Assembly: GCA_000146465.1 (NCBI GenBank)
Contig: CP001949.1
Reading direction: 5' to 3' (one strand)
Length of the DNA: 64,000 nucleotides
The notes below the pieces were generated by a model, which was not told where the DNA came from, did no database searches, and saw nothing but the letters and a program-made list of their open reading frames with translations. Shown one piece after another: positions 1,241 to 40,674 of the stretch. The position numbers and the translations under genes are program-made. Numbering within the stretch: position 1 is the stretch's first letter; every line of letters starts with the position of its first letter.

Positions 1241-3628
1241 ATGGAACGGATTAGACTACCACTGAAGCGGCACAAGATCGAGCAAGAGGGAAAAGGCTGG
1301 AGAGGCAGAGAGCAGAAGAAGGTGGATCTGAAACGATTTGTGGAAATGTTTGTCAACCAAGCCTTGAAGGAGATGAAGGAAGCACTTGGGAAATTCCATT
1401 CTATTTCCGAAATAGTGTGCAGAAGGGAATTGAGCGTGTTTTTCAAACAGAAGGCTGCAGACTTTGAATGTTTGTTTCTACTTATAAGTGGAGTTGAGTA
1501 CCTGAAAGAGGCAAATTCAAACAGACATAGGATGGAGAAGATCAAAGATGTAGATGGGGAATATGTGATGATGGCGGATCGACTTGCACATCTGTTTGGA
1601 TCCTTCAAGTCGATGATTGTACCCAAGAGTGATGTCTTTACCTCACTCCAGACGGTTTACAACAGCAGCTATCTTCTTCCAAGTCTTGTTGGAGATAGTA
1701 CTGAGCATGAGGTGGCAAGCTTCGAAGAAATCAATAGAATCACCCGAATGTACTTGGACAAGGAGGATCTGTCTGTTTATGACAGTGTTGTGATTGATCG
1801 AGGTATTACAGTTCTGTCGACCAGATTTTTTTCGTTTAGCCTTGCATTATGTGGAGAGATATCCAGGCCTGAATGGAAACTGATCAATGTCAGGGGAGAT
1901 AACGAGGTCTTCAACCGCCACCTTCTGTTTGGTATGCCCCATCAAATAGACAAGATATCGAGGTTTCTGAGGGTCTATGAGGCACACACGAAGGCCCGGG
2001 ATATATTTCTGATGGTGAAAAGATCTTCCGAGCGCATAGAACTGAGTATAAAGGGCCACTACAAGAGATTTGAGGTTTCTTTTCACGTGTTCAAGATGGC
2101 AGTGCATGTCGAATGCAGCGATATTAACGGGAAGTTGTTTATAGAAGAAGATGTGTTTCCTTCTGGAAAGAATGTGGTAGAGTCGTTTGAAAGTAGAGTT
2201 TCGGAGTATCTCTGCAGGGACGGAAGGAATGCTTCTTTTAGTTTTGAAAAGGGATTTGTAGCTCTTGGAGATGAAGAGATCCAAACCTTCAGAAGTTTTA
2301 CAGACCTAGATGTCTTCTTGGAAAGAAAGAAAGAAAATTCCAGCTTTTATAGCTTTTTTGAGGAAAGATTTCCCTGCTACAGAAACCATAGGACAAACAT
2401 GTTTGGGGATAGAAATGTCTTCATTATAGAAAACGGGCTTTTTGTGTGCATCCGTCTGGTGAGATTTGTAGATAGCCACATGGAGATAAAGGTAATAGTT
2501 GGGAGCTGTGAACTGGTAGACTTTCCGAGTTATACAGAAGTCATCATGGAAGAGGACGATAGAGGAGAGATAGTGGGGATTATAAACGGAGGAAAGGTAA
2601 AGCAATCGACGATCAAGACCGAATCATTGTGCAAATACTTTGAAAAAGGCATGGAGCTTTTGTTTCTTTCCTATAGGCTTCTCCCGATGATCAACGGAAA
2701 GATTAGTGTTGGAGAACAAATCTTGCTGAACCATAGAGTCAAGAATACACAAATTGATATTTATATAGAGAAGAGGGAGGAGAAGTTTATTGTTACAACA
2801 AGCAGATTTGGGGCAAGGACAGCCACAACCTCAGGGGATGTTCATAACTGTGTTGCTTTTGCGTTGCTTCTAATGGATATCTTTACAAGCTCAAAGGATT
2901 CGGAGCTATTGAATGTTATCTCGATTGACCTTTTCAAAGGAACGACGTTGAGAATTTCGGGTCTTCCCGTGTCTCTTAAGCTGGACTGTTCAAAATCCCT
3001 CAAGGCAAGTCCACTGGCTGTGAATTGTGGACTAAGAAACAGTTCTATCCTTGGGGCCCTGGGCCTTCTATACTGTTTCCATGGGTTCTTTTCCAATGGG
3101 CTTGTACCTACAGCTTCCACACCCACAAGTCTGATATTTGTGTTTAGACACCTGTTCAAAGGGCATGTGAAGGTAAAGATGGTTGATAGAACTAAGTACA
3201 TGGTTTCTCTGAATGGAGGTAGAATTAAGGACGCTCTTGGAGGCTTTGGACGTGAGATATCTAGCATGGACACGTCTTTTCCTCGAAAGCTATCTTCCTT
3301 CTACTTCAAGGAAAAGATTGGATTAATATCCGATGTGGCAAGGAAGAGTTATAAAATAACTGCCAGTGAAAGCGAGGTGAGCATTTCAACAGCCTGTGGA
3401 AACTTCAAGATCTATATCGAAGATTGCAGATGTAAATTTCAGATCTGCTCCATCAACACAGTCGAACCAAGCGATCAGTTCATAGAAGCCATCAGCGAGT
3501 ATTTTGGAGAGGCTATGAGTGAAGGAAGAGATATTCCTAGTTGTATAAAGCTTTTAGACAGTTCAGAAGAACTTAAGAGACTGTTTGAAAACATTGAGTC
3601 GAAGAGAAAAGGGAATTACAGTAACTAG
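1241..3628 (+). CDS. Hypothetical 795-aa protein (weak resemblance of the N-terminus to the Mediator Med14/Rgr1 N-domain; not supported further)
   Basis: Long intact ORF with an ATG start; upstream GGATCCACCC motif; no strong family signature. Confidence 0.4.
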   Translation: MERIRLPLKRHKIEQEGKGWRGREQKKVDLKRFVEMFVNQALKEMKEALGKFHSISEIVCRRELSVFFKQKAADFECLFLLISGVEYLKEANSNRHRMEKIKDVDGEYVMMADRLAHLFGSFKSMIVPKSDVFTSLQTVYNSSYLLPSLVGDSTEHEVASFEEINRITRMYLDKEDLSVYDSVVIDRGITVLSTRFFSFSLALCGEISRPEWKLINVRGDNEVFNRHLLFGMPHQIDKISRFLRVYEAHTKARDIFLMVKRSSERIELSIKGHYKRFEVSFHVFKMAVHVECSDINGKLFIEEDVFPSGKNVVESFESRVSEYLCRDGRNASFSFEKGFVALGDEEIQTFRSFTDLDVFLERKKENSSFYSFFEERFPCYRNHRTNMFGDRNVFIIENGLFVCIRLVRFVDSHMEIKVIVGSCELVDFPSYTEVIMEEDDRGEIVGIINGGKVKQSTIKTESLCKYFEKGMELLFLSYRLLPMINGKISVGEQILLNHRVKNTQIDIYIEKREEKFIVTTSRFGARTATTSGDVHNCVAFALLLMDIFTSSKDSELLNVISIDLFKGTTLRISGLPVSLKLDCSKSLKASPLAVNCGLRNSSILGALGLLYCFHGFFSNGLVPTASTPTSLIFVFRHLFKGHVKVKMVDRTKYMVSLNGGRIKDALGGFGREISSMDTSFPRKLSSFYFKEKIGLISDVARKSYKITASESEVSISTACGNFKIYIEDCRCKFQICSINTVEPSDQFIEAISEYFGEAMSEGRDIPSCIKLLDSSEELKRLFENIESKRKGNYSN

Positions 3629-3715
3629 GTTTATTAAACAGCCCTTCCTAGGAGAAATTCGGCCTGTTTTTTTCCTGTTTGTGGACACGAAGCTGTGATA
3701 TCTAAACTTATTTAT

Positions 3716-4822
3716 TTACACTTCCTCGATGCTGTTGACTGCCAGGGTATCGAATGTATTTCTTCTGCAGAATAGAATATAAAAAATCGAGCCAATGAAC
3801 GAGAAGATAAGGACAACAGCCAACGGGAGAGCAACAAGGACCATCTGGGGCCCAACCCCAAGAACAAGACATACAGTCAAGAGGGTCACAAGCATGCTGA
3901 TGTGTGCAGTAAGAACTCTTTTCCATCCAAGAACCTCTTCGTTTTCATCTTCCGAGGCCGTTTCAAGGAGCGCAAAGAAGTCATTCTGTGTTCTGTCTAT
4001 TTCAAAAAGAAAGTCGTCGTCTGCATCCAGGGTGTTCCTCCGGAAGTACTCTCTGATCTCCGGCTGCATCAGAAAGTCGTCGTCCGAAGCGAAATAGTTG
4101 GCACTGTACATCACGCTTCTTTCTGGAGGAATTGACTTAGGCATAGCTATTGTGCCTTTCTGAATCTTTTCTATGATCTCTCTGGGATTTTCCTCCATGC
4201 TACTTATCTTCAAGGATCGGTCGCTAGCATCGAGACTGTCTCTTGACTTATGACATCTCTTGTTGTCCTCCGATGCCTCTTCTACCTTGTGTCTGAACAC
4301 CTGTGAAAACGCCTTTTTTGTTGTTTTGCCTTCCACCTTGGTTTCTATGAAGAAATACTCAACAAGTGCTCTGTCGACTTCTTGGGGCGGGACTTTGTAA
4401 TAGTAAACCTGCCCTAGTATATACATGTTGTTAAGGGGGTTTCGAACCTTCATTCTGTGCAACAATCTTCTGTCAGACTCAAACCTGAATAGTATCCTAT
4501 TCAATTCTGATGCAGCGTAGTAGAAGTTGTATATGACGCTCTGGTCATCTGGATCTGGAGTTGTGACTCTTGCAAGTATGAAGTCCTTATTCTTCGACCT
4601 GCAGTCCAATACTATTGTTTTGAACTCTTCTAAAGTGAAAGTTTCAACAGTGTTTGCATCCAGTACGTCCAATTCATCGCCTTCTCCATATGCCAGGTTG
4701 TTTGGACCCCCGACTATCCTGATTTTGGATGGCATTCCCTTGGATTTCTCATACAGATCTAGTGTCTCTTTTGCCATCCGGCTTGAACTTGTTTGTAAAC
4801 AAATAAAAATATATTTGGCCAT
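3716..4822 (-). CDS. Tail-anchored membrane protein, family member A (paralogue of 11411..12232); the true start may be the internal ATG at 4777
   Basis: Shares a conserved ~110-aa N-terminal domain (FTLE.FK, KDF, VTT.DP, YYAA.ELNRILF, R.PINN, G.V.YYK) with the ORF at 11411; single C-terminal hydrophobic segment. Confidence 0.45.
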   Translation of the reverse strand: MAKYIFICLQTSSSRMAKETLDLYEKSKGMPSKIRIVGGPNNLAYGEGDELDVLDANTVETFTLEEFKTIVLDCRSKNKDFILARVTTPDPDDQSVIYNFYYAASELNRILFRFESDRRLLHRMKVRNPLNNMYILGQVYYYKVPPQEVDRALVEYFFIETKVEGKTTKKAFSQVFRHKVEEASEDNKRCHKSRDSLDASDRSLKISSMEENPREIIEKIQKGTIAMPKSIPPERSVMYSANYFASDDDFLMQPEIREYFRRNTLDADDDFLFEIDRTQNDFFALLETASEDENEEVLGWKRVLTAHISMLVTLLTVCLVLGVGPQMVLVALPLAVVLIFSFIGSIFYILFCRRNTFDTLAVNSIEEV

Positions 4823-4978
4823 GTGATTAAATTAAAAACAATGGCCTTCCTTCCCTTGCTTGGCGATCCATGCTTCTTTCCTGGAAATACTGTCCATTCG
4901 TGTTCTGGGGAGTTGTAAACCTTTTATTTGCTAATCTGAAACAGACAGTAATAAAAGAAGCTTGACAGTAAACAAAAA

Positions 4979-5572
4979 ATGCCTGGCATCAAGGAGGATA
5001 TGAAGACCTATACATTCAAGATGGTGGTTCTTGGATACTATTCGGTGGGTAAGAGCAGCTTGGTGCTCAAGTATGTCAAGGGGGAGTTCAATCCAAATGA
5101 GGAGAGTACCATAGGTGCATCGTTCTTAACAAAAACTGTTTTTACTCCTGAAGGAAGCATCAAGTTCGAAATATGGGACACTGCAGGCCAGGAAAGATAC
5201 AACAGCCTGATTCCGATGTATTACCGTGGGGCGCAGGTGGCCCTGATAGTTTATGATATAACTTCTGTGGAAAGCTTCGAAACTGCAAAGAGATGGGTTG
5301 AAGAGCTTAGCTTTGAGAAGCCAAGGGAGTTCATCAAGGTTCTGATTGGAAATAAGTCCGATCTAGAGGAAGACCGAAAAGTAGAGTTCCAGCAGGGAAA
5401 GGAATATGCAGATAGTCAAAACCTTCTATTCTTCGAGTCGAGTGCAAAGACAGGAAAAAACATAGCCGAGATATTTAATGCAATTGCAGAGAAAGTTCCA
5501 AAAGAGGAGGTCAAGAAAAACACAAAAGGATTTAGGCTGAGAGATGATTACATAAAATACCTTTGCTGCTGA
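4979..5572 (+). CDS. Rab5/Ypt51-family small GTPase
   Basis: G1 GYYSVGKSS, switch II WDTAGQERY, NKSDL, SAK; C-terminal CC prenylation motif; closest by eye to the Rab5 subfamily. Confidence 0.8.
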   Translation: MPGIKEDMKTYTFKMVVLGYYSVGKSSLVLKYVKGEFNPNEESTIGASFLTKTVFTPEGSIKFEIWDTAGQERYNSLIPMYYRGAQVALIVYDITSVESFETAKRWVEELSFEKPREFIKVLIGNKSDLEEDRKVEFQQGKEYADSQNLLFFESSAKTGKNIAEIFNAIAEKVPKEEVKKNTKGFRLRDDYIKYLCC

Positions 5573-5584
5573 TCTTTATTTACT

Positions 5585-6304
5585 TTAAATGTTTGTAATC
5601 TCGAGGACAGATCTTCTGAGTCTTATGTAAGACTCGATCGATCCACATTTCTCGAGGAACTTCCCTTCATCTAGTGCTTCGCAGAGCAGAGGATCGATTT
5701 TCAGCTCGCATATAAAGCGAACACCCATCTCCATTGCAAGTCTTTCTCCTCCTCTTGCCCCAAATATGTTGGTGGGGTTTCCACAGGACTCGCAGCAGTA
5801 TCCACTCATATTCTCCACAAGCCCGAGAATCTGGATTCCATTAGAAATGCAAAAGTCAATTGCTCTCGAAGAATCTCCTAGGGAGATGTTCTGCGGAGTA
5901 GTGGCAATCAAAACACTAATGTCCTTTCCAACCAGAAATCCATGTTCCTCAGATATTCCTGGAGGCATATCAATCACTACGTTATCAAAGCCATCGGCCG
6001 ATTCATAGAACATCGATAATACAGACATCTTCTTTGGACCTCTCCATATCACAGAGTCACTTTCCTTCATAAGCAAAGCCATCGAAAGTATGTACAAGTT
6101 CTCAGATGCTTTGGCCGGAATCAATCCCTTCTCTCCTTTGTATATCTTTTCCTTAATCCCAAGTCCACTAGCCACACTTGGCCCACACAGATCAAAGTCC
6201 AACAGCAGTGTCTTTCCTCTTTCGGACATCGCCGTGCTCAGCATGATAGAGATCGAGCTTTTTCCAACTCCTCCCTTACCACTCATAACAGCCACCATGA
6301 CCAT
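5585..6304 (-). CDS. Cfd1/Nbp35-type (Mrp/NBP35 family) P-loop ATPase, cytosolic Fe-S cluster assembly
   Basis: MSGKGGVGKS deviant Walker A at the N-terminus; C-terminal CxxC-type cysteines (GYCCESCG); ATG preceded by a CCCC run; convergent with the Rab gene at a 12-bp spacing. Confidence 0.7.
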   Translation of the reverse strand: MVMVAVMSGKGGVGKSSISIMLSTAMSERGKTLLLDFDLCGPSVASGLGIKEKIYKGEKGLIPAKASENLYILSMALLMKESDSVIWRGPKKMSVLSMFYESADGFDNVVIDMPPGISEEHGFLVGKDISVLIATTPQNISLGDSSRAIDFCISNGIQILGLVENMSGYCCESCGNPTNIFGARGGERLAMEMGVRFICELKIDPLLCEALDEGKFLEKCGSIESYIRLRRSVLEITNI

Positions 6305-6328
6305 ACAAGGGGTGCCCCAATCAGTCTA

Positions 6329-6937
6329 TCATTCAATTTCTTCCGACTCATTTACAGACGCCAGTTTCTTCACAAATACTCTTTCCTTCCTTTTCACTAC
6401 AGGCAATCTTCTTGGCTTGGCTGTTGGAAGTAGTATAGAGGGAAACTCCTTGATGTTATGCACCTTTGCATTAGGCCTGTCTTGGAATTTTATCTTTCTT
6501 TTCCGTCTTCTACTTATGTGCTCTGGACATCTGCTTTCTCCATCAAACACAAGAACAACATATCTGTATCCAGAATTCTTGAGAGTATTCTTTTCAACAA
6601 TTTCCTTCATACATTTTTTTTTTGTTCCCTTTGCATGACCATTCGAGTCCTTCTTGGCTAACGGATCTTTCCCCTTCCTCATTTGGTATCCAACAGACAC
6701 TTTTCTTTTCCTAATCGTCCCATCTTCTACAAGCTTTGCTTCCTTTTTCTTTCTAGGCTTCCTTCTTTTAAAAGCCCCGAAGCCCAACTCAGTCTTATTT
6801 TCTTCGAGCCTCTTCGCCATTCCCCTTTTCAATATCTCACTTCGGAGTCCGATGTTGTTTAGTAGTGAGTATTCCCTATTTAGAAGATACATATCTATCT
6901 CCCTCTTAGAAGGCCTTCCTATAAATATTTCATCCAT
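6329..6937 (-). CDS. Basic lysine/arginine-rich hypothetical protein (nucleolar-type composition)
   Basis: ORF downstream of ERCC4 on the same strand; first in-frame ATG (MDEIF) at 6937 overlaps the last codons of ERCC4; an alternative ATG lies at 6892. Confidence 0.3.
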   Translation of the reverse strand: MDEIFIGRPSKREIDMYLLNREYSLLNNIGLRSEILKRGMAKRLEENKTELGFGAFKRRKPRKKKEAKLVEDGTIRKRKVSVGYQMRKGKDPLAKKDSNGHAKGTKKKCMKEIVEKNTLKNSGYRYVVLVFDGESRCPEHISRRRKRKIKFQDRPNAKVHNIKEFPSILLPTAKPRRLPVVKRKERVFVKKLASVNESEEIE

Positions 6938-9116
6938 CAATTTCCTCCCCTGCTTTGGCTTTTGTTTTATTCTCTCCTCCGCCCTCCTGCCTGAAGAAGT
7001 TGTATATAAGAACACCATTCTCTCTCCCAAGAGTCAACTCAAGGCGATCCATGCTGGAGAATATGAGGTCCTTCAGGCTCTTGAAACATTTTCGAACCTT
7101 TAGGATGTTGAACTGTGTTATTCCAGGAATACTCAGAAGTATCTCATGGAGGACGGGGTCCATCTTATGCCTTTCAGAAACACTTGGTACATCTTCCTTC
7201 CTCTGAAGATCTCTTATCACCTTTGTGGAAAATAGTCTTGACTCAGACCAGATAACCCTCAGCATTCCGAAGTTAAACAGAAGCAAGGCAAACTTTGCTG
7301 CAATGCTGTTTTTGAATGTGTCCTGGTCATAGCGGTAGTGGTCAGACAGACATGGCCTTCCATCAAACTCAAGGAGGAGAACAGGGCTTGGATACCTGTG
7401 GCATAGCATGCTCATCTGAGAATAAAGCCTTCCTGTCCCTAGAGATGATATAAAGTCGGAGATCGATTTTCTTTCGATGCAGATTGTGGGCCCTATTAGG
7501 TAATCTCCAGTGGGAAGAGTGGAAATGCATATCTTGTTTCTTGCCCTGAACAGAAAGAAGGGAAGTTCGGCTCTTAGCTCCCTGGAGTCAACCACAACCG
7601 TGTAGTCCTTCTCTCCCGACTCATGCTCCTCTAGATCAATCACATCCTCCCCATCCAATTGCAAAGGAAGTCTTGATCTCTCTTCTATGAGCTTTTCAAA
7701 CGATGTCTTTTCTCTTCTTATCTCATTCAAGTATCTTTGTTCCTCTAGAGACGAGGAGTGCATAAGGAAAAACACTTTAACAGGATGCATCACCCTGTAT
7801 CTTTCTATCTTCCTAACGCTGTCCTGCCCAGATTCTACAAAAATCACATTCTCATAACTGCTCTCGTAATACTTGAACTCGTAGTGGGTCAAGATCTTTA
7901 CTGTGTTCTCCTTCTTTTCAATACTCTCGACAGAGACTAGACCAAACACAACAAAAACATTTAAGATCATGTTCCTGACTGCACGGTTGGAAACTAATAC
8001 TATCGACGATGCCTCTCCTAACTCCTGCAGAATCTCTATCAATTTCTTGATCTTTGGATTCAAGGTATAGAAGGCTCTTAACTTGGAATCGGAAAGTCCC
8101 AAGAGAGATTCCAGTTCATTCTTCTCATTTCTCTTTTCCTTCTGCTCCCTAATATCTTCTATTTTTTGGATTGCTTCTTCAAACTGTTCTCTGGCTCCAT
8201 CAATTAGTACATGAGATATTGGTAGATTGATCCATGTGCTATCCTTTCCAAGTTCTACTTGCTTCTTTACAATTTCCTTGACATATCCATAGAACGATCC
8301 TGGATCGCAAGAAAACAGCAGAAAAATCAATCCACGTATGTCATACAGATCCTCCATTATCCTGCTGTTCAAAACGTTCATCTGCTTGAATGTCTTGCGG
8401 ATACTTCCAAATATTATGGCCTCTGCATCCACCTCCTCTCGATCAGGACCTCTGAAGGCCATTTTCAGAAGCCCGTTGATGATCTCCAAAAGAATCACTT
8501 GGAGATGACTGCGGCTCTCCGACATTTTGAACTTGATCTCAACAACATCTGCATCCCCTTTCAAGGACTTCTCGACCGAGGAATGGAATCGTGGGAAAAA
8601 AACAACCTTGTTCATCTTCAGGCTTTTCATCTTCCTGGCTAGCGGAGAGAACCCAAGAGAAAGAGGCACAGGCGACTCCGAAAACCCGTTTATGAATCCT
8701 GTTTTATTCTTTGATCTGAAGACATGGCTGATGAAGGACTCCAGCGATGTCTCTGTTACTGTCTCTGCATGGTTGACAAGAATGCAATCTATTTTCTCAA
8801 CATCCACTGTGCCGTCAATCATGTCTGCAAGAAATACACGGCTACTTGCAATAAACACTCCTCCATTGAGATACTTTTCTCTCCTTCTTGTCCTTGGCAA
8901 AGTTCTTACATCATGAAGGAAAGGAGACTCCATCCTCAGAAGCATCGATTCGTCCTCTGTATTGAAATTCACCAGAAGCACAAGATAGGTCTTCTCCAGA
9001 TACTTCTTTACCACCTCCAAAATTATCCCTTGGATGTTAAGGCCTCCCCCCATTACAAGAAGGCTGTTTTGTCCGTCGCATGTTTGAAGTGCTTCTTTCT
9101 CGTACTCCAAGAGCAT
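6930..9116 (-). CDS. XPF/ERCC4 (Rad1) structure-specific endonuclease
   Basis: N-terminus MLLEYEK aligns with the XPF start (LLEYE...); helicase-like domain; C-terminal ERCC4 nuclease motifs (ERKS.SDF..S...GRL..Q) and a tandem HhH; the track ORF extends to 9581 but residues upstream of M156 are non-homologous and overlap Rpb4 on the other strand. Confidence 0.8.
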   Translation of the reverse strand: MLLEYEKEALQTCDGQNSLLVMGGGLNIQGIILEVVKKYLEKTYLVLLVNFNTEDESMLLRMESPFLHDVRTLPRTRRREKYLNGGVFIASSRVFLADMIDGTVDVEKIDCILVNHAETVTETSLESFISHVFRSKNKTGFINGFSESPVPLSLGFSPLARKMKSLKMNKVVFFPRFHSSVEKSLKGDADVVEIKFKMSESRSHLQVILLEIINGLLKMAFRGPDREEVDAEAIIFGSIRKTFKQMNVLNSRIMEDLYDIRGLIFLLFSCDPGSFYGYVKEIVKKQVELGKDSTWINLPISHVLIDGAREQFEEAIQKIEDIREQKEKRNEKNELESLLGLSDSKLRAFYTLNPKIKKLIEILQELGEASSIVLVSNRAVRNMILNVFVVFGLVSVESIEKKENTVKILTHYEFKYYESSYENVIFVESGQDSVRKIERYRVMHPVKVFFLMHSSSLEEQRYLNEIRREKTSFEKLIEERSRLPLQLDGEDVIDLEEHESGEKDYTVVVDSRELRAELPFFLFRARNKICISTLPTGDYLIGPTICIERKSISDFISSLGTGRLYSQMSMLCHRYPSPVLLLEFDGRPCLSDHYRYDQDTFKNSIAAKFALLLFNFGMLRVIWSESRLFSTKVIRDLQRKEDVPSVSERHKMDPVLHEILLSIPGITQFNILKVRKCFKSLKDLIFSSMDRLELTLGRENGVLIYNFFRQEGGGENKTKAKAGEEIDG

Positions 9117-35911: not shown

Positions 35912-36876
35912 ATGGAGAAGAATCAGGCCGAGCCAGAAAAGAACATAAGTTACACAAAACTTGCATTTTTCTTTTTCGTAATAAGAACAGTAGTAATAGG
36001 TCTGGCCTTACTATCGGGACCATACTTTGCACTAGATGACGAAACAACAACATTCAAGATGTTTATAATTTTCTTGGACATAACAAACATATTACAGTTT
36101 ATATTTCAATGGGACATAATTCAGCGTAAGATTCTATTTCAATATCTTCTATATATTCCTGTCCTTGCTTACTCTCTGACTCTTACAATCACGTTAATAG
36201 TTGATGCACACAATACTAACAGTTGTAACTTCAAAGTAGAAGGTAAAATTAAGAAATTAGCTATTGGATATATCTATACATATATGGGAATTCTTCTTGG
36301 GGAAGTTGCTCTCCTTCCAATCATATACAGAAGACTCAAGAGTGACTTTATGTGGGCAAACTTCAAAAAGCTAGGAGCTAACACAGCTATTAATGGTAAG
36401 TGGAGATAAGTAATTTTAGATGCCTTCGGGAGGAGAGAACAGTTTAGTGCAATAAGAAGATTTATGTTGATTTTTCTGTGTGGAGAAGTTGCAAGTTTCA
36501 ATATAAGCATAAGAGATAACAAAGATGTCTTCTTTTTTGTAGCAGGGACACAGATATTTGTGATTTTCCTTTCTTTTATATTTTTCAACGAAGAATATGT
36601 ACATCAGAGAAGGTTTCTTCTGGGATTTTCCGGACTGTGTACATTAGGAGGAATAGCATACACTGTGATTTATATTGTTATGGCTAGTAGGAGTAGCGAA
36701 ATAAGAAAGTAAGTGAAGATGTTAATTTTAGAGGAGTTATTTCCGAAATTGTATTCTATACAATTACAATGCTTATTTTCTTTGTTGGAGCCTTTAGGGA
36801 TTATCAGACATTTGGGAAGGGACTAAAAGATTATTATAGTGGAAGTCTTGGAATAAGAAAAAAACTCACACCTTAG
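35912..36876 (+). CDS. Multi-pass membrane protein encoded by 3 exons (35912..36395, 36420..36708, 36732..36876), 305 aa
   Basis: Two track ORFs plus an unlisted 3' frame join precisely after removing introns GTAAGTGGAGATAAGTAATTTTAG (24 nt) and GTAAGTGAAGATGTTAATTTTAG (23 nt); total CDS is 918 nt in frame and ends at TAG 36874-36876. Confidence 0.55.
36396..36419 (+). other. Spliceosomal intron, 24 nt
   Basis: GTAAGTGG...TAATTTTAG; phase 1; restores the frame. Confidence 0.65.
36709..36731 (+). other. Spliceosomal intron, 23 nt
   Basis: GTAAGTGA...TAATTTTAG; phase 2; restores the frame. Confidence 0.65.
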
Positions 36877-36894: not shown

Positions 36895-37298
36895 CCACGA
36901 GACAATAAAAACCAAAGACTTTATTTCTCTTGGGGACTCCCCGCATACACCGTCATCCGGCTGTTCCCCAACACCTTCTCAATCACCCCCTCAGACGCTA
37001 GGTGCCGCAACACATTCTCCGCAACCCCGAGGTTCAGATTGTACTTGCTCCCAACACCATACCGCGTCACAACACTCGCTCGGCACACATCCTTGCGCAC
37101 CTTCGACAGGAGCTCCTCGGTCACCGTCACTCCCCTGCGCACTTCCTCCTTCTTCTTTCCGTCGCTCCACTTCTTCTTGTCCTTCCTTGTTCCAGACATG
37201 GCCTTGAGTGCCTTCTTCTCCTTCGACTCCTGGATCTTCTTGGCCATTTGTGGGAGTCCAATTTTCCCACTTCAAATCCCATCCCAGAAACTCCCAAA
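36895..37298. repeat. Left arm of a ~404-bp perfect inverted repeat (partner 38722..39126) containing the entire RPS25 gene plus its 5' CCC motif and 3' flank
   Basis: Reverse complement of 38722..39126 matches base for base where checked (boundaries and the first ~120 nt of the CDS); all three overlapping frame translations are identical between the copies. Confidence 0.8.
36921..37247 (-). CDS. RPS25: Ribosomal protein eS25 (RPS25), copy 1 (inside the left arm of the inverted repeat)
   Basis: 108 aa with an eS25 signature (KKKWS.GK.K......V..TEEL..K...D.....V.T...V.....N......L..L...G). Confidence 0.85.
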   Translation of the reverse strand: MAKKIQESKEKKALKAMSGTRKDKKKWSDGKKKEEVRRGVTVTEELLSKVRKDVCRASVVTRYGVGSKYNLNLGVAENVLRHLASEGVIEKVLGNSRMTVYAGSPQEK

Positions 37299-37365
37299 GA
37301 AGCCCATAGCCTCCGAATGCCAGGAGTGGATTTCTGGATTGGAAAAATTTGCCCTCAATCTAAAG

Positions 37366-37812
37366 ATGGCAAAGATGCATTCTAGCGGAAGAGGACGCTC
37401 GGGGAGCGTTAAGCCGTATGCAACAGTGTTTCCAACATGGCTGACAAAGACGGCTGATGAAATTAAGGCCGATGTTATCCAGATGGGAAACAAGGGGATT
37501 CCTGCACCTGATATAGGGAAAAAGCTAAGAGACGAATATGGAGTCGGAAATGCCAAGGACGTCCTGGGGTGTGAAATCACAAAGTTCCTTGAAGAGAATG
37601 GGGCATCTCCAAAGATCCCATTTGATCTTGAGTCTCTGGTTCGCCGAGCGAACACCCTCCGAAGTCACTTGAACATCTATAGGAAAGACAACTCTGCAAA
37701 ATACAGACTTATCCTTGTTTCATCCCGGATGTATCGTGTTGCAAGGTACTACAAGCGCAAGATGAGGATTCCAGGGAACTGGAAGCCAAAGCTTGTTGAG
37801 CTCATTAAATGA
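37366..37812 (+). CDS. RPS13: Ribosomal protein uS15 (RPS13)
   Basis: MAKMHSSGRG...PTWL...KKG..PS.IG..LRD..GV...YRKD...KYRLIL.ESR..R.ARYYK; the ATG is preceded by GCCCTCAATC. Confidence 0.9.
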   Translation: MAKMHSSGRGRSGSVKPYATVFPTWLTKTADEIKADVIQMGNKGIPAPDIGKKLRDEYGVGNAKDVLGCEITKFLEENGASPKIPFDLESLVRRANTLRSHLNIYRKDNSAKYRLILVSSRMYRVARYYKRKMRIPGNWKPKLVELIK

Positions 37813-37930
37813 TCTTCTTGAAGTCTCGAACTGGCTGTTTCAAGGCCACCTCTGTGTGTTTTTGACGTCTTTCCAACAGGCGATTTTATTTGCGAAGAGA
37901 GGTATATTTTGTGAAAAACAAACCCCGTGA

Positions 37931-38626
37931 ATGTATGAGGAGCTCTTGAACTTTCTGCTGGCGAGGAAGAAGAGGCTGCTGTCTGAGGAAGAGGCCGATA
38001 GACTTATGGAGCTTATTACCCAGTCGATGGAAGCCAGAGAGGGCCGGGAAGGGAAAGAGGACAATACAGCATTGATAAGGAAGATCCTCGAAAATGTGGA
38101 TATGGACCAAGCTTACGAAACAGACACTGAGAGCATGGAAAATGCTATGGAAGATTTGCTTTTTGATGGCTACAGCAGCGAAATTTACAGCAACGATACT
38201 ATAGACTTGAGCGAGTCTGACAACGACACAGAGCCTCTGTCTGAGCGGAAGTTCCAGAGAGGAGAGTTTAGAGCTGGAGTGAAGGCTTCTGAGAATGAAG
38301 AGGAGCCGAAGAGGAGGATTGGGCTCAAAGACAAAGCAAAAGAAGGGGAATGGAAGGATCTGTCGGGAGGGAAGGATAACGATCTCCAACCACCAAAGGA
38401 TAGCACAGGAGTTCTGTCGGAGGATGGGGAAGGCCCCAAGAGAAGGGAATTCAAGCTCCCTGGATTTAGTAAGGAGAAGAAGGAGAGATCATTTGAGATG
38501 AGGGATGGCGGGGACTTTAACTTGCCAGGGTCTGTGGAATTTGAGTTTGATCTCGGAGAACTAAAGAAGGTGAATAATACCGGGCCGAATGTGAAGTTTT
38601 TCGACGAGGATGGAGAAGAGATCTGA
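37931..38626 (+). CDS. Acidic Glu/Asp-rich hypothetical protein (231 aa)
   Basis: ATG preceded by AAACCCCGTGA; lies between the repeat arms. Confidence 0.4.
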   Translation: MYEELLNFLLARKKRLLSEEEADRLMELITQSMEAREGREGKEDNTALIRKILENVDMDQAYETDTESMENAMEDLLFDGYSSEIYSNDTIDLSESDNDTEPLSERKFQRGEFRAGVKASENEEEPKRRIGLKDKAKEGEWKDLSGGKDNDLQPPKDSTGVLSEDGEGPKRREFKLPGFSKEKKERSFEMRDGGDFNLPGSVEFEFDLGELKKVNNTGPNVKFFDEDGEEI

Positions 38627-38721
38627 AAGTCTTTGGTTTTGAATGTAGAGTAATAGTGACTGTTTTATGGATGAATTATCTTTATTAAAGTAGCAAGTTC
38701 TCTCAATGATTGTGTTTTTTC

Positions 38722-39126
38722 TTTTGGGAGTTTCTGGGATGGGATTTGAAGTGGGAAAATTGGACTCCCACAAATGGCCAAGAAGATCCAGGAGTCGAAG
38801 GAGAAGAAGGCACTCAAGGCCATGTCTGGAACAAGGAAGGACAAGAAGAAGTGGAGCGACGGAAAGAAGAAGGAGGAAGTGCGCAGGGGAGTGACGGTGA
38901 CCGAGGAGCTCCTGTCGAAGGTGCGCAAGGATGTGTGCCGAGCGAGTGTTGTGACGCGGTATGGTGTTGGGAGCAAGTACAATCTGAACCTCGGGGTTGC
39001 GGAGAATGTGTTGCGGCACCTAGCGTCTGAGGGGGTGATTGAGAAGGTGTTGGGGAACAGCCGGATGACGGTGTATGCGGGGAGTCCCCAAGAGAAATAA
39101 AGTCTTTGGTTTTTATTGTCTCGTGG
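38722..39126. repeat. Right arm of the inverted repeat (partner 36895..37298)
   Basis: See the left arm. Confidence 0.8.
38774..39100 (+). CDS. RPS25: Ribosomal protein eS25 (RPS25), copy 2
   Basis: Identical translation to copy 1. Confidence 0.85.
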   Translation: MAKKIQESKEKKALKAMSGTRKDKKKWSDGKKKEEVRRGVTVTEELLSKVRKDVCRASVVTRYGVGSKYNLNLGVAENVLRHLASEGVIEKVLGNSRMTVYAGSPQEK

Positions 39127-39192: not shown

Positions 39193-40674
39193 ATGACATA
39201 CAGAGGGTATAGTGGAGATAGAAGAGGGTTTCGGACGTCGCCCAGATTTGACAGAGGGGGCAGATATCCTCCTCGGGAAAGACGTGAGGGACAGAGATAC
39301 GATCCTCTTCCAGAGCTTCCTCCTGTGGAGTTTCAGAAGAACTTCTACAAGGAGGCGGAGTCTATCAGTAGAATGAGTTCGCGCGATGTCGATTCGTTCA
39401 GGAAGACAAACGAGATGACGGTCAAGGGGATGGATATTCCACATCCGATCAGCCGGTTTGAGGAGGCAGGGTTTCCCTCTAGGATTGTGGAGGAGCTTGA
39501 AGGAAAGGGATTCAGTGGGCCCACGCCTATCCAAGCACAAGGATGGCCGATGGCATTAAGCGGAAGGGATATGGTAGGGATTGCACAGACTGGATCTGGA
39601 AAGACACTGAGTTTTATTCTTCCTGGGCTTGTGCATGCAAAGGATCAGCAGCCTCTGCGAAGAGGGGACGGGCCTATTGCGCTTGTGCTTGCGCCGACTC
39701 GGGAGCTTGTGATGCAAATCAAGAAAGTTGCCGACGAGTTCTGTGGGATGTTTGGACTAAGGAGTACAGCGGTTTATGGAGGAGCTTCATCGCAGCCACA
39801 AATAAAGGCTTTGCATGAGGGGGTAGAAATAGTTATTGCAACTCCTGGAAGGTTGATTGACCTGCATGAGCAAGGGCATGCACCGCTTAGCAGAGTGACA
39901 TTCCTTGTTCTTGACGAGGCCGACAGGATGCTTGACATGGGGTTTGAGCCGCAGCTCCGAAAGATTATTCCAAAGACAAATGGAAACAGACAGACATTAA
40001 TGTGGAGTGCAACATGGCCGAGAGAGGTGCGAGGACTGGCAGAAAGCTACATGAATGATTACATTCAAGTGGTTGTTGGAAATGAAGAGCTTAAGACAAA
40101 CAGCAAGATCAAGCAAGTGATTGAAGTCTGTAGTGGACGTGAGAAGGAGGACAAGCTGCTTGGAGTTCTTGACAAATTCAAGGGAGACAAGGTCATTGTG
40201 TTCTGCAACATGAAAAGAACATGCGACGATTTGGAGTATGTTCTGAATAGATCTGGGTATGGGGCTGCAGCATTGCATGGAGACAAATCGCAGAACATTC
40301 GAGATAAAGTTCTTGATGACTTCCGATCAGGGAGGAGGCCGATTCTAATTGCCACAGAGGTTGCAGGAAGAGGACTTGATGTAAATGACGTCAAGCTTGT
40401 GATCAACTTCGACTTCCCAGGGACATGCGAGGACTATGTGCATCGAATTGGAAGGACGGCAAGAGGCAACACAAAGGAGGGGATATCGCATACATTCTTT
40501 ACAATCAACGACAAAGGAAATGCACGGGAGCTGATCCGGATGCTAAGAGAAGCCAATCAGACGGTTCCTTCTGATCTCGAGGACATGGTGAGAGTGTCGA
40601 ACGATAGATATGGATCCAGGGGTGTCAAACACGACTACAGAGGAAGACCTGGGAGATTTCCTTATCGAGGATGA
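39193..40674 (+). CDS. DEAD-box RNA helicase (DDX5/Dbp2-like)
   Basis: Q motif, GSGKT, PTRELV, DEAD, SAT, HRIGRTAR; C-terminal RG-rich tail; the ATG is preceded by TTACCCCACA. Confidence 0.85.
   Translation: MTYRGYSGDRRGFRTSPRFDRGGRYPPRERREGQRYDPLPELPPVEFQKNFYKEAESISRMSSRDVDSFRKTNEMTVKGMDIPHPISRFEEAGFPSRIVEELEGKGFSGPTPIQAQGWPMALSGRDMVGIAQTGSGKTLSFILPGLVHAKDQQPLRRGDGPIALVLAPTRELVMQIKKVADEFCGMFGLRSTAVYGGASSQPQIKALHEGVEIVIATPGRLIDLHEQGHAPLSRVTFLVLDEADRMLDMGFEPQLRKIIPKTNGNRQTLMWSATWPREVRGLAESYMNDYIQVVVGNEELKTNSKIKQVIEVCSGREKEDKLLGVLDKFKGDKVIVFCNMKRTCDDLEYVLNRSGYGAAALHGDKSQNIRDKVLDDFRSGRRPILIATEVAGRGLDVNDVKLVINFDFPGTCEDYVHRIGRTARGNTKEGISHTFFTINDKGNARELIRMLREANQTVPSDLEDMVRVSNDRYGSRGVKHDYRGRPGRFPYRG

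Follow-up and report, generated by a model that had tools for sequence, protein, structure and literature searches.

An inverted pair of eS25 ribosomal protein genes in Encephalitozoon and Ordospora: concerted evolution of the arms and both orientations of the segment between them

The microsporidian genus Encephalitozoon is a textbook example of eukaryotic genome reduction, and the cores of its chromosomes have been described as almost free of repeats. A stretch of 64,000 nucleotides (nt) of Encephalitozoon intestinalis DNA (assembly GCA_000146465.1, contig CP001949.1; the whole stretch is called the window below) carries two complete copies of the gene for ribosomal protein eS25 (RPS25), in opposite orientation and base for base the same, on either side of the genes for ribosomal protein uS15 (RPS13) and for an acidic protein. 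Why are the two copies identical? An earlier note, made from the letters of the window, had offered as answers a very recent duplication, ongoing gene conversion, a segment that can flip by intramolecular recombination, or an assembly artefact. The analysis presented here indicates that the locus is very probably an old inverted duplication of eS25, the arms of which are homogenized by arm-to-arm gene conversion and the spacer of which is occasionally inverted by crossover.

The two arms, detected with a repeat finder, occupy positions 36895-37298 and 38723-39126; they are 404 nt each, complementary at 404/404 positions (100%) and 1,424 nt apart. The perfect inverted duplication of the whole gene described in the earlier note is thereby borne out, and the full-length alignment proposed there contained no mismatches. 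All coordinates given in it hold except 38722, which is one base off, the inner edge of the right arm being 38723. As a window-wide scan yielded no further direct or inverted repeat of at least 45 nt in the 64 kb, chance can be excluded. The left arm, read on the minus strand, comprises a complete eS25 transcription unit of 51 nt of 5' region, the coding sequence (CDS) and 26 nt of 3' flank. Its CDS (copy A; 36921-37247, minus strand) encodes a protein of 108 amino acids (aa) that matches Pfam family PF03297 (Ribosomal_S25) with E=2.6e-26. The right arm is the complement of the left one and carries on the plus strand copy B (38774-39100), the 108-aa product of which is identical to that of copy A. 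The 51 nt upstream of eS25 contain GGG motifs plus CTCCCACAAATG before the start codon, and in the 3' flank an AATAAA overlaps the eS25 stop. Each arm is a self-contained eS25 gene unit. The long open reading frames (ORFs) in other frames of the arms were rejected as by-products of biased, purine-rich and stop-poor sequence.

The eS25 protein of the window has an exact match on CP075165.1 of GCA_024399295.1, a record of 247,125 bp that we take to be chromosome VIII of the nanopore telomere-to-telomere (T2T) assembly of E. intestinalis ATCC 50506. The closest eS25 proteins, at 81-83% identity, come from E. cuniculi, E. hellem and E. romaleae. Orthologous loci were retrieved by look-up of the eS25 and uS15 proteins, and the same locus was found in three assemblies of E. 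cuniculi (GB-M1, LFTZ01 and T2T), three of E. hellem, one of E. romaleae, three of Ordospora colligata and in that of O. pajunii. Every one of these loci has two inverted eS25 genes around uS15 and the acidic-protein gene, with a membrane-protein gene on one side and the genes for a DEAD-box helicase and ELP3 on the other. The comparison with syntenic regions that the earlier note had suggested thus revealed an orthologous inverted pair in five relatives belonging to two genera. A very recent duplication confined to E. intestinalis, in which identity would simply reflect youth, does account for arms that are 100% identical over 404 nt; it would, however, have to be one of six independent duplications at the same locus, which is not credible, and this reading deserves practically no credence.

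Near-identity of the arms within a genome is found throughout, at a level of 99-100% in all species but E. romaleae. It amounts to 420-421 of 421 nt in the three E. cuniculi assemblies, to 401/401, 409/410 and 403/407 in the three of E. hellem, and to 392/402 (97.5%) in E. romaleae, where the core is identical at 378/380 positions, the CDS copies do not differ, and 8 of the 10 mismatches lie within the last ~22 nt at the inner edge. In O. colligata, the arms extend over 768-834 nt at 100%, with one of the three assemblies differing by a 33-nt unit, and in O. pajunii, the second arm of which has been assembled only to its inner 178 nt, where the contig ends, the identity is 178/178. The two eS25 CDS copies are the same in all complete pairs but that of a single E. 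hellem assembly, which has one single-nucleotide polymorphism (SNP). Between species, in contrast, the nucleotide identity of eS25 is 73-86%. The flanking DEAD and ELP3 genes differ by 1.1-1.8 synonymous substitutions per site (dS) within Encephalitozoon and are saturated when compared with Ordospora. The published average nucleotide identity lies at 74-81% among Encephalitozoon and at ~68% from one genus to the other (PMC11118330). Arms that match within each genome, set against deep divergence between species, point to concerted evolution and not to a young duplication. From the alignments, the inverted eS25 pair is judged to be old, neither recent nor an artefact of assembly.

An indication of its age is provided by a metagenome contig (L019, Ga0308170_10000161; 124 kb, 38% GC), on which ELP3 (plus), DEAD (minus), a homologue of the acidic protein (minus) and uS15 (plus) follow each other in the span 3393-8441. 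The encoded proteins are 76% (ELP3), 57% (DEAD), 23% (acidic) and 52% (uS15) identical to those of the window. In this contig, uS15 and the acidic gene are arranged head-to-head, as opposed to in tandem in the window, and no eS25 was found within 8 kb. Its source is a more distant microsporidian with conserved synteny. The pair would therefore have arisen after the L019 lineage split off and before Encephalitozoon and Ordospora separated, or else have been lost in the L019 lineage. Scanning metagenome contigs with a uS15 profile did not reveal eS25 beside uS15 in any of 80 loci (0/80), most of which were low-identity or split matches; L019 alone among them was informative. Three Logan unitigs from uncharacterized relatives (L013, L014 and L015; uS15 72-79% identical) end in exact 30-nt terminal inverted repeats, so that an inverted repeat encloses the uS15-acidic cassette in these relatives as well. 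The terminal 30 nt of L015 resemble the eS25 5' region. The ends of L013 (SRR21023573; 1-195 and 2197-2391) are diverged inverted paralogues of the membrane-protein gene. In L014 (SRR29713749), the bounded unit includes the membrane-protein gene (277-1062), which immediately precedes uS15 with no eS25 between them.

That the arms are kept alike by gene conversion, the second of the answers in the earlier note, is supported most directly by differences between strains. Divergence between E. hellem strains amounts to 1.6-3.7% in the spacer and the 2-kb flanks. Three between-strain sites are present in the arms (alignment columns 184, 394 and 406), and each time the allele of the strain is found in both arms. 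Strain-specific SNPs shared by the two arms argue for ongoing arm-to-arm conversion. One further E. hellem SNP is confined to a single arm, most readily viewed as a difference yet to be converted; in GCA_018342045.1 (L005/L009), a SNP in the DEAD-proximal eS25 copy moves the stop by one codon, leading to proteins of 108 and 109 aa, the shorter one ending one codon early. Both E. cuniculi GB-M1 and LFTZ01 carry one single-arm SNP. The inner boundary of identity varies by ~10 nt among E. hellem strains, and the limits of the arms relative to the CDS range from -44 to -55 and from +17 to +46 nt in Encephalitozoon, as compared to -116 and +280 to +346 in O. colligata. Mismatches are mostly located at the arm edges. 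Because these boundaries vary among strains and species, the edges evidently shift, with the core kept identical. The locus thus combines near-identical arms, an orthologous position, greater identity within than between genomes and variants shared by both arms of an inverted repeat.

In the outer (3') part of both O. colligata arms (L016-L018), a 33-nt tandem unit, ATGAGTGTGTGCTATAGTAGTGAATGTGGAAGT, varies in copy number, the extra units in the two arms being 0+0, 1+0 and 2+2 across three assemblies that are otherwise identical over 5.4 kb. The number of units is equal between the arms in two of these assemblies. Fast repeat turnover combined with conversion could produce such variation, and so could assembly collapse.

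Could purifying selection on eS25, with no conversion at all, keep the arms identical? The product is a conserved ribosomal protein, which would be in line with such an explanation. The identity, however, extends to synonymous sites and to 77 nt of non-coding flank (up to ~460 nt in O. colligata), the very same sites differ freely between species (dS 0.4-1.1; nonsynonymous divergence, dN, 0.1-0.26), and SNPs specific to a strain occur in both arms, all of which makes selection on its own an extremely improbable cause.

The base composition of eS25 may carry a trace of the same process. The G+C content at third codon positions (GC3) of eS25 is 0.771 against 0.505 ± 0.066 for 63 non-overlapping ORFs of the window, the next-highest value among true genes of the window being that of eIF4E (0.62). 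Single-copy ribosomal protein genes in the window are not elevated, with 0.50-0.53 for uS15 and 0.54 for uL14. In each of the six species, none of the other genes compared reaches the GC3 of eS25 (0.65-0.78), the dS of which within Encephalitozoon (0.39-0.78) is also about half that of the neighbouring genes. High GC3 and low dS probably reflect GC-biased gene conversion, as far as the composition of 108 codons can tell.

Besides being converted, the arms appear to have recombined in such a way that the spacer was inverted. The spacer (37299-38722; 1,424 nt) is the unique, invertible segment of the locus. In agreement with the earlier note, in which the arms were said to enclose two genes and to lie about 1.4 kb apart, Pfam matches and ORF calls place in it uS15 (37366-37812, plus strand; 148 aa; PF08069, E=1.3e-21, and PF00312, E=9.5e-9), which is head-to-head with eS25 copy A across 118 nt of intergenic sequence, and the gene for the acidic protein of 231 aa (37931-38626, plus strand; no Pfam family match). 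Two genes in the unique flanks served as orientation references: on the left, the three-exon membrane-protein gene (35912-36876, plus strand), which ends 18 nt before the left arm and, on the right, the DEAD-box helicase gene (39193-40674, plus strand; PF00270 and PF00271), which starts 66 nt past the right arm. With all loci oriented so that the DEAD helicase is on the right, blastn of the E. intestinalis query against E. cuniculi, E. hellem and E. romaleae aligned both flanks in PLUS and the whole arm-spacer-arm block in MINUS orientation. The order in E. intestinalis is flank-eS25(-)-uS15(+)-acidic(+)-eS25(+)-DEAD, and in E. cuniculi, E. hellem, E. romaleae and O. colligata it is flank-eS25(-)-acidic(-)-uS15(-)-eS25(+)-DEAD. 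O. pajunii has the intestinalis-type order; in blastn against both O. colligata and E. cuniculi, its flanks are PLUS and its arm-spacer-arm block is MINUS. The spacer is thus seen in both orientations relative to the unique flanks, with the breakpoints inside the arms.

A neighbour-joining tree built from 1,981 concatenated residues of the locus has the topology (O. colligata,(E. cuniculi,(E. intestinalis,(E. hellem,E. romaleae)))), with 70% bootstrap support for the position of E. intestinalis. As the orientation in this species differs from that in all of its relatives, including the outgroup O. colligata, the flip is derived under any topology of the ingroup. Opposite orientations in E. intestinalis and within Ordospora would require at least two inversions; the comparison suggests at least one flip along the lineage to E. 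intestinalis and one among the Ordospora species, that of O. pajunii being the less secure one. The idea that the segment can flip therefore stands on an evolutionary timescale, in the form of the inverted spacers of E. intestinalis and O. pajunii, but does not extend to frequent flip-flop. According to Corradi et al. (2010), only two chromosomal inversions separate E. intestinalis from E. cuniculi (PMC4355639), and the spacer flip may be one of them.

An assembly artefact could take the form of a collapsed or misjoined repeat or of an arbitrarily chosen orientation of the E. intestinalis spacer. Short-read assemblies of this species break exactly at the arms and fail to place the spacer, which ends up as a separate contig of 1,424 bp in three samples (L007) and as a Logan unitig of 1,484 bp (L008) that consists of the spacer with 30 nt of inverted repeat at each end; for reads shorter than an arm, the orientation is inherently ambiguous. 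The structure nevertheless occurs in 12 assemblies, and the repeat itself in genomes of six species assembled from Sanger, Illumina or nanopore data; the breaks in short-read assemblies, moreover, coincide with the arms. At 2.2 kb, the structure is easily spanned by long reads such as those behind the T2T record CP075165.1. An independent assembly of 2010 was reported to have two inversions relative to E. cuniculi. The suspicion of an artefact, also voiced in the earlier note, is consequently highly improbable.

What would a flip do to the genes involved? Direct reading of the sequence shows that a flip leaves all four junctions, two between arm and flank and two between arm and spacer, as they were. 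In both isomers, uS15 lies head-to-head with one of the eS25 copies, the acidic gene lies tail-to-head with the 5' region of the other, and differences between the isomers exist only at distances of more than 404 nt. As the identical arms keep every junction the same, a flip does not turn the cassette around with respect to the RPS25 promoters in the way the earlier note had expected, and for the same reason a promoter-switch role of the flip is unlikely. No recombinase gene is present among the genes within ±10 kb, which comprise helicases, WD40, coatomer, ELP3, PHF5, HSF, a Rad21-like gene and orphans. Lacking a recombinase, short recombination sites and a promoter that would be re-aimed, the locus does not belong to the site-specific invertible switches. 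A scan for bacterial-type promoters and terminators gave counts at the level of shuffled sequences and is uninformative for a eukaryote.

The segment might nonetheless flip actively, with both isomers at appreciable frequency within a strain or population and with a function for the orientation in, for instance, read-through transcription or the direction of replication. Both orientations do occur among species, the arms are perfect substrates for recombination, and short-read and k-mer data are blind to the isomer, the k-mer content of the two being identical so that short reads cannot tell them apart. Fast flipping would lead to random orientations among strains, however, whereas a single orientation per species was observed in 3/3 assemblies of E. 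cuniculi, 3/3 of E. hellem and 3/3 of O. colligata, and four of the six species share the same one. Together with the unchanged junctions, the lack of a recombinase gene within 10 kb and the lack of any promoter that is re-oriented relative to a target gene, this makes active flip-flop an unlikely explanation. The uniformity among strains implies that crossovers have been fixed far more rarely than conversions have occurred. In homologous recombination between short inverted repeats, non-crossover outcomes dominate, and the rarity of fixed crossovers would fit such a general process.

A related possibility is that the segment is bistable, with coexisting isomers that differ in the expression of uS15 and the acidic gene, for instance through read-through from the flanks, or that the repeat is a structural element at the chromosome midpoint, such as a centromere- or replication-associated inverted repeat. 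Read-through transcription is common in these compacted genomes. If either were true, the repeats in L013 and L014 would point to selection for an inverted repeat around the cassette and not for two eS25 copies. The centre of the repeat is at ~129.5 kb of the 247,125-bp record, almost at the midpoint of the chromosome. In E. intestinalis it is found at 52.4% of the chromosome length, in the T2T assemblies of E. cuniculi and E. hellem at 51.9% and 50.4%, and in O. colligata JBLVQE01 at 52.5%. With synteny conserved, the coincidence amounts to a single observation, with a prior of ~5%. Bistability or a structural role is considered quite improbable.

The reading that is preferred here, an old and homogenized duplication with occasional inversion, can be put in terms of a sequence of events. 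The whole eS25 gene would have been duplicated in inverted orientation before Encephalitozoon and Ordospora diverged, and after the split from a more distant microsporidian lineage that is without the pair. The arms would since then have paired within the chromosome and been repaired against each other. Non-crossover outcomes, that is to say gene conversion, would keep the arms base-identical in each genome while the pair diverges between species, and a GC bias of this conversion would have given eS25 its exceptional GC3. Rare crossovers of the same intermediates would invert the 1.4-kb spacer, an event that apparently reached fixation on two or more occasions, in E. intestinalis as well as in one of the two species of Ordospora. 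As identical arms leave every local junction unchanged, flipping is probably near-neutral. The redundant eS25 copy plausibly survives as inverted repeats invert rather than delete, and as conversion exposes null alleles to selection.

Several points weigh against this reconstruction. The abundance of Lys and Glu in eS25 and a codon bias linked to expression may add to its GC3, and the low dS of 0.39-0.78 rests on 108 codons. The repeat content around the same cassette is different in L013 and L014, which indicates that the locus has been through more than one simple duplication. For every species, the orientation is that of the assembled sequence. In O. pajunii, the contig stops after 178 nt of the second arm, the three assemblies of O. 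colligata hardly differ in their flanks and hence are not independent, and the orientation in E. intestinalis is taken from one long-read assembly, the spacer being left unplaced in short-read ones. As to the two inversions of Corradi et al. (2010), the text gives no locations for them.

The genes next to the arms have peculiarities of their own. An alignment of orthologs from nine species showed that the acidic protein has a conserved N-terminal MYEELLNFLLARKKRLLSEEE motif and a C-terminal (V)KFFDEDG motif, and that the first ~33 residues are strongly conserved. None of the nine orthologs had a hit in Pfam, and a profile search against the sequences in PDB gave no match. An exhaustive phmmer search among 1.84 billion representative proteins yielded only 11 clusters of homologues, all of them clade-restricted. 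The protein seems to be conserved but confined to this clade, and in all relatives examined its gene is linked to uS15. The left-flank gene (35912-36876) specifies a multi-pass membrane protein and is interrupted by two tiny introns (GTAAGTGGAGATAAGTAATTTTAG, 36396-36419; GTAAGTGAAGATGTTAATTTTAG, 36709-36731). Removal of both leads to a protein of 305 aa, the same length as its E. cuniculi ortholog, where the gene calls in the E. intestinalis record give two separate ORFs of 165 and 82 aa instead. The region of this gene is unusually AT-rich (GC 0.32-0.34). A 15-mer, AAAGTCTTTGGTTTT, is present after the eS25 stop in both arms (39099-39113, plus strand; 36908-36922, minus strand), and a third copy directly follows the stop of the acidic gene (38626-38640, plus strand), which makes three matches versus 0.26 expected. 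The sharing is limited to E. intestinalis; E. hellem has another shared 3' motif, TGTTTTATTATGGAG. The match could be a common 3'-end signal or the footprint of a micro-conversion and, since it is not conserved in other species, it has not been counted as part of the mechanism.

An inverted repeat or palindrome under concerted evolution with recurrent inversion is a known kind of object, to which the eS25 locus appears to belong. The palindromes of primate sex chromosomes (P1-P8 of the human Y and those of the X) are among its closest counterparts. Their arms have reportedly been found by Rozen et al. in 2003, and in later work, to be homogenized by arm-to-arm gene conversion. As in the present case, whole genes are contained in inverted arms that are ~99.9-100% identical, the palindromes are conserved across diverged species, conversion is GC-biased (at eS25 apparently so) and spacers have been inverted. 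Their arms measure 9 kb to 1.45 Mb, however, as compared to 0.4-0.8 kb here, and they hold testis-expressed genes instead of a housekeeping ribosomal gene in the core of a 2.3-Mb genome of an organism without sex chromosomes. In the FLNA-EMD region of the eutherian X, a 48-kb segment between 11-kb inverted repeats is said to have undergone recurrent inversions (Small et al. in 1997; Caceres et al. in 2007). As is apparently the case for the eS25 locus, a unique multi-gene segment between near-identical inverted repeats was inverted independently in several lineages there, with the breakpoints inside the repeats and the genes intact. The sizes in that system are ~30 times larger, and polymorphism within species is documented for it.

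Other systems share part of these properties. The plastid inverted repeat resembles the eS25 locus in its copy correction, shifting arm boundaries and a dS of arm genes below that of single-copy neighbours. Its isomers are equimolar in every plant, in contrast to the one orientation per assembly, uniform across strains and in a nuclear single-copy context, that is seen here. The Drosophila genes Hsp70Aa and Hsp70Ab at 87A likewise form a pair of complete inverted genes, 1-2 kb apart and subject to long-term gene conversion, albeit one tied to inducible dosage. Their spacer is not known to contain essential genes or to have undergone lineage-specific inversions. The bacterial switches hin and fim and the shufflons also consist of a segment bounded by inverted repeats that occurs in two orientations. 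They depend on short sites of ~10-30 bp, a dedicated site-specific recombinase and a re-aimed promoter or coding end, none of which accompanies the 404-nt whole-gene arms described here. A literature search yielded no paper describing this repeat and none on a duplication of eS25/S25 in Encephalitozoon. The T2T Encephalitozoon paper catalogues only repeats of at least 1 kb.

For Encephalitozoon and its relatives, the locus indicates that homologous recombination is active in reduced genomes and that conversion erases differences between 0.4-kb copies faster than strains diverge. It also suggests why a redundant gene persists under pressure for deletion, an inverted repeat being inverted where other repeats might be lost. 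One of the few "inversions" reported between species may be a repeat-mediated flip and not the result of random breakage. On the practical side, assemblies from short reads are interrupted at the arms or fail to place the spacer, and gene trees of eS25 will mislead as to the date of the duplication. As the locus is of a size suited to the polymerase chain reaction, it would be a natural reporter for the rates and the bias of conversion and crossover in organisms that are without genetic tools and the sexual cycle of which is debated. This use, together with the setting in which the repeat is found, among the most reduced of eukaryotic nuclear genomes, constitutes its main interest.

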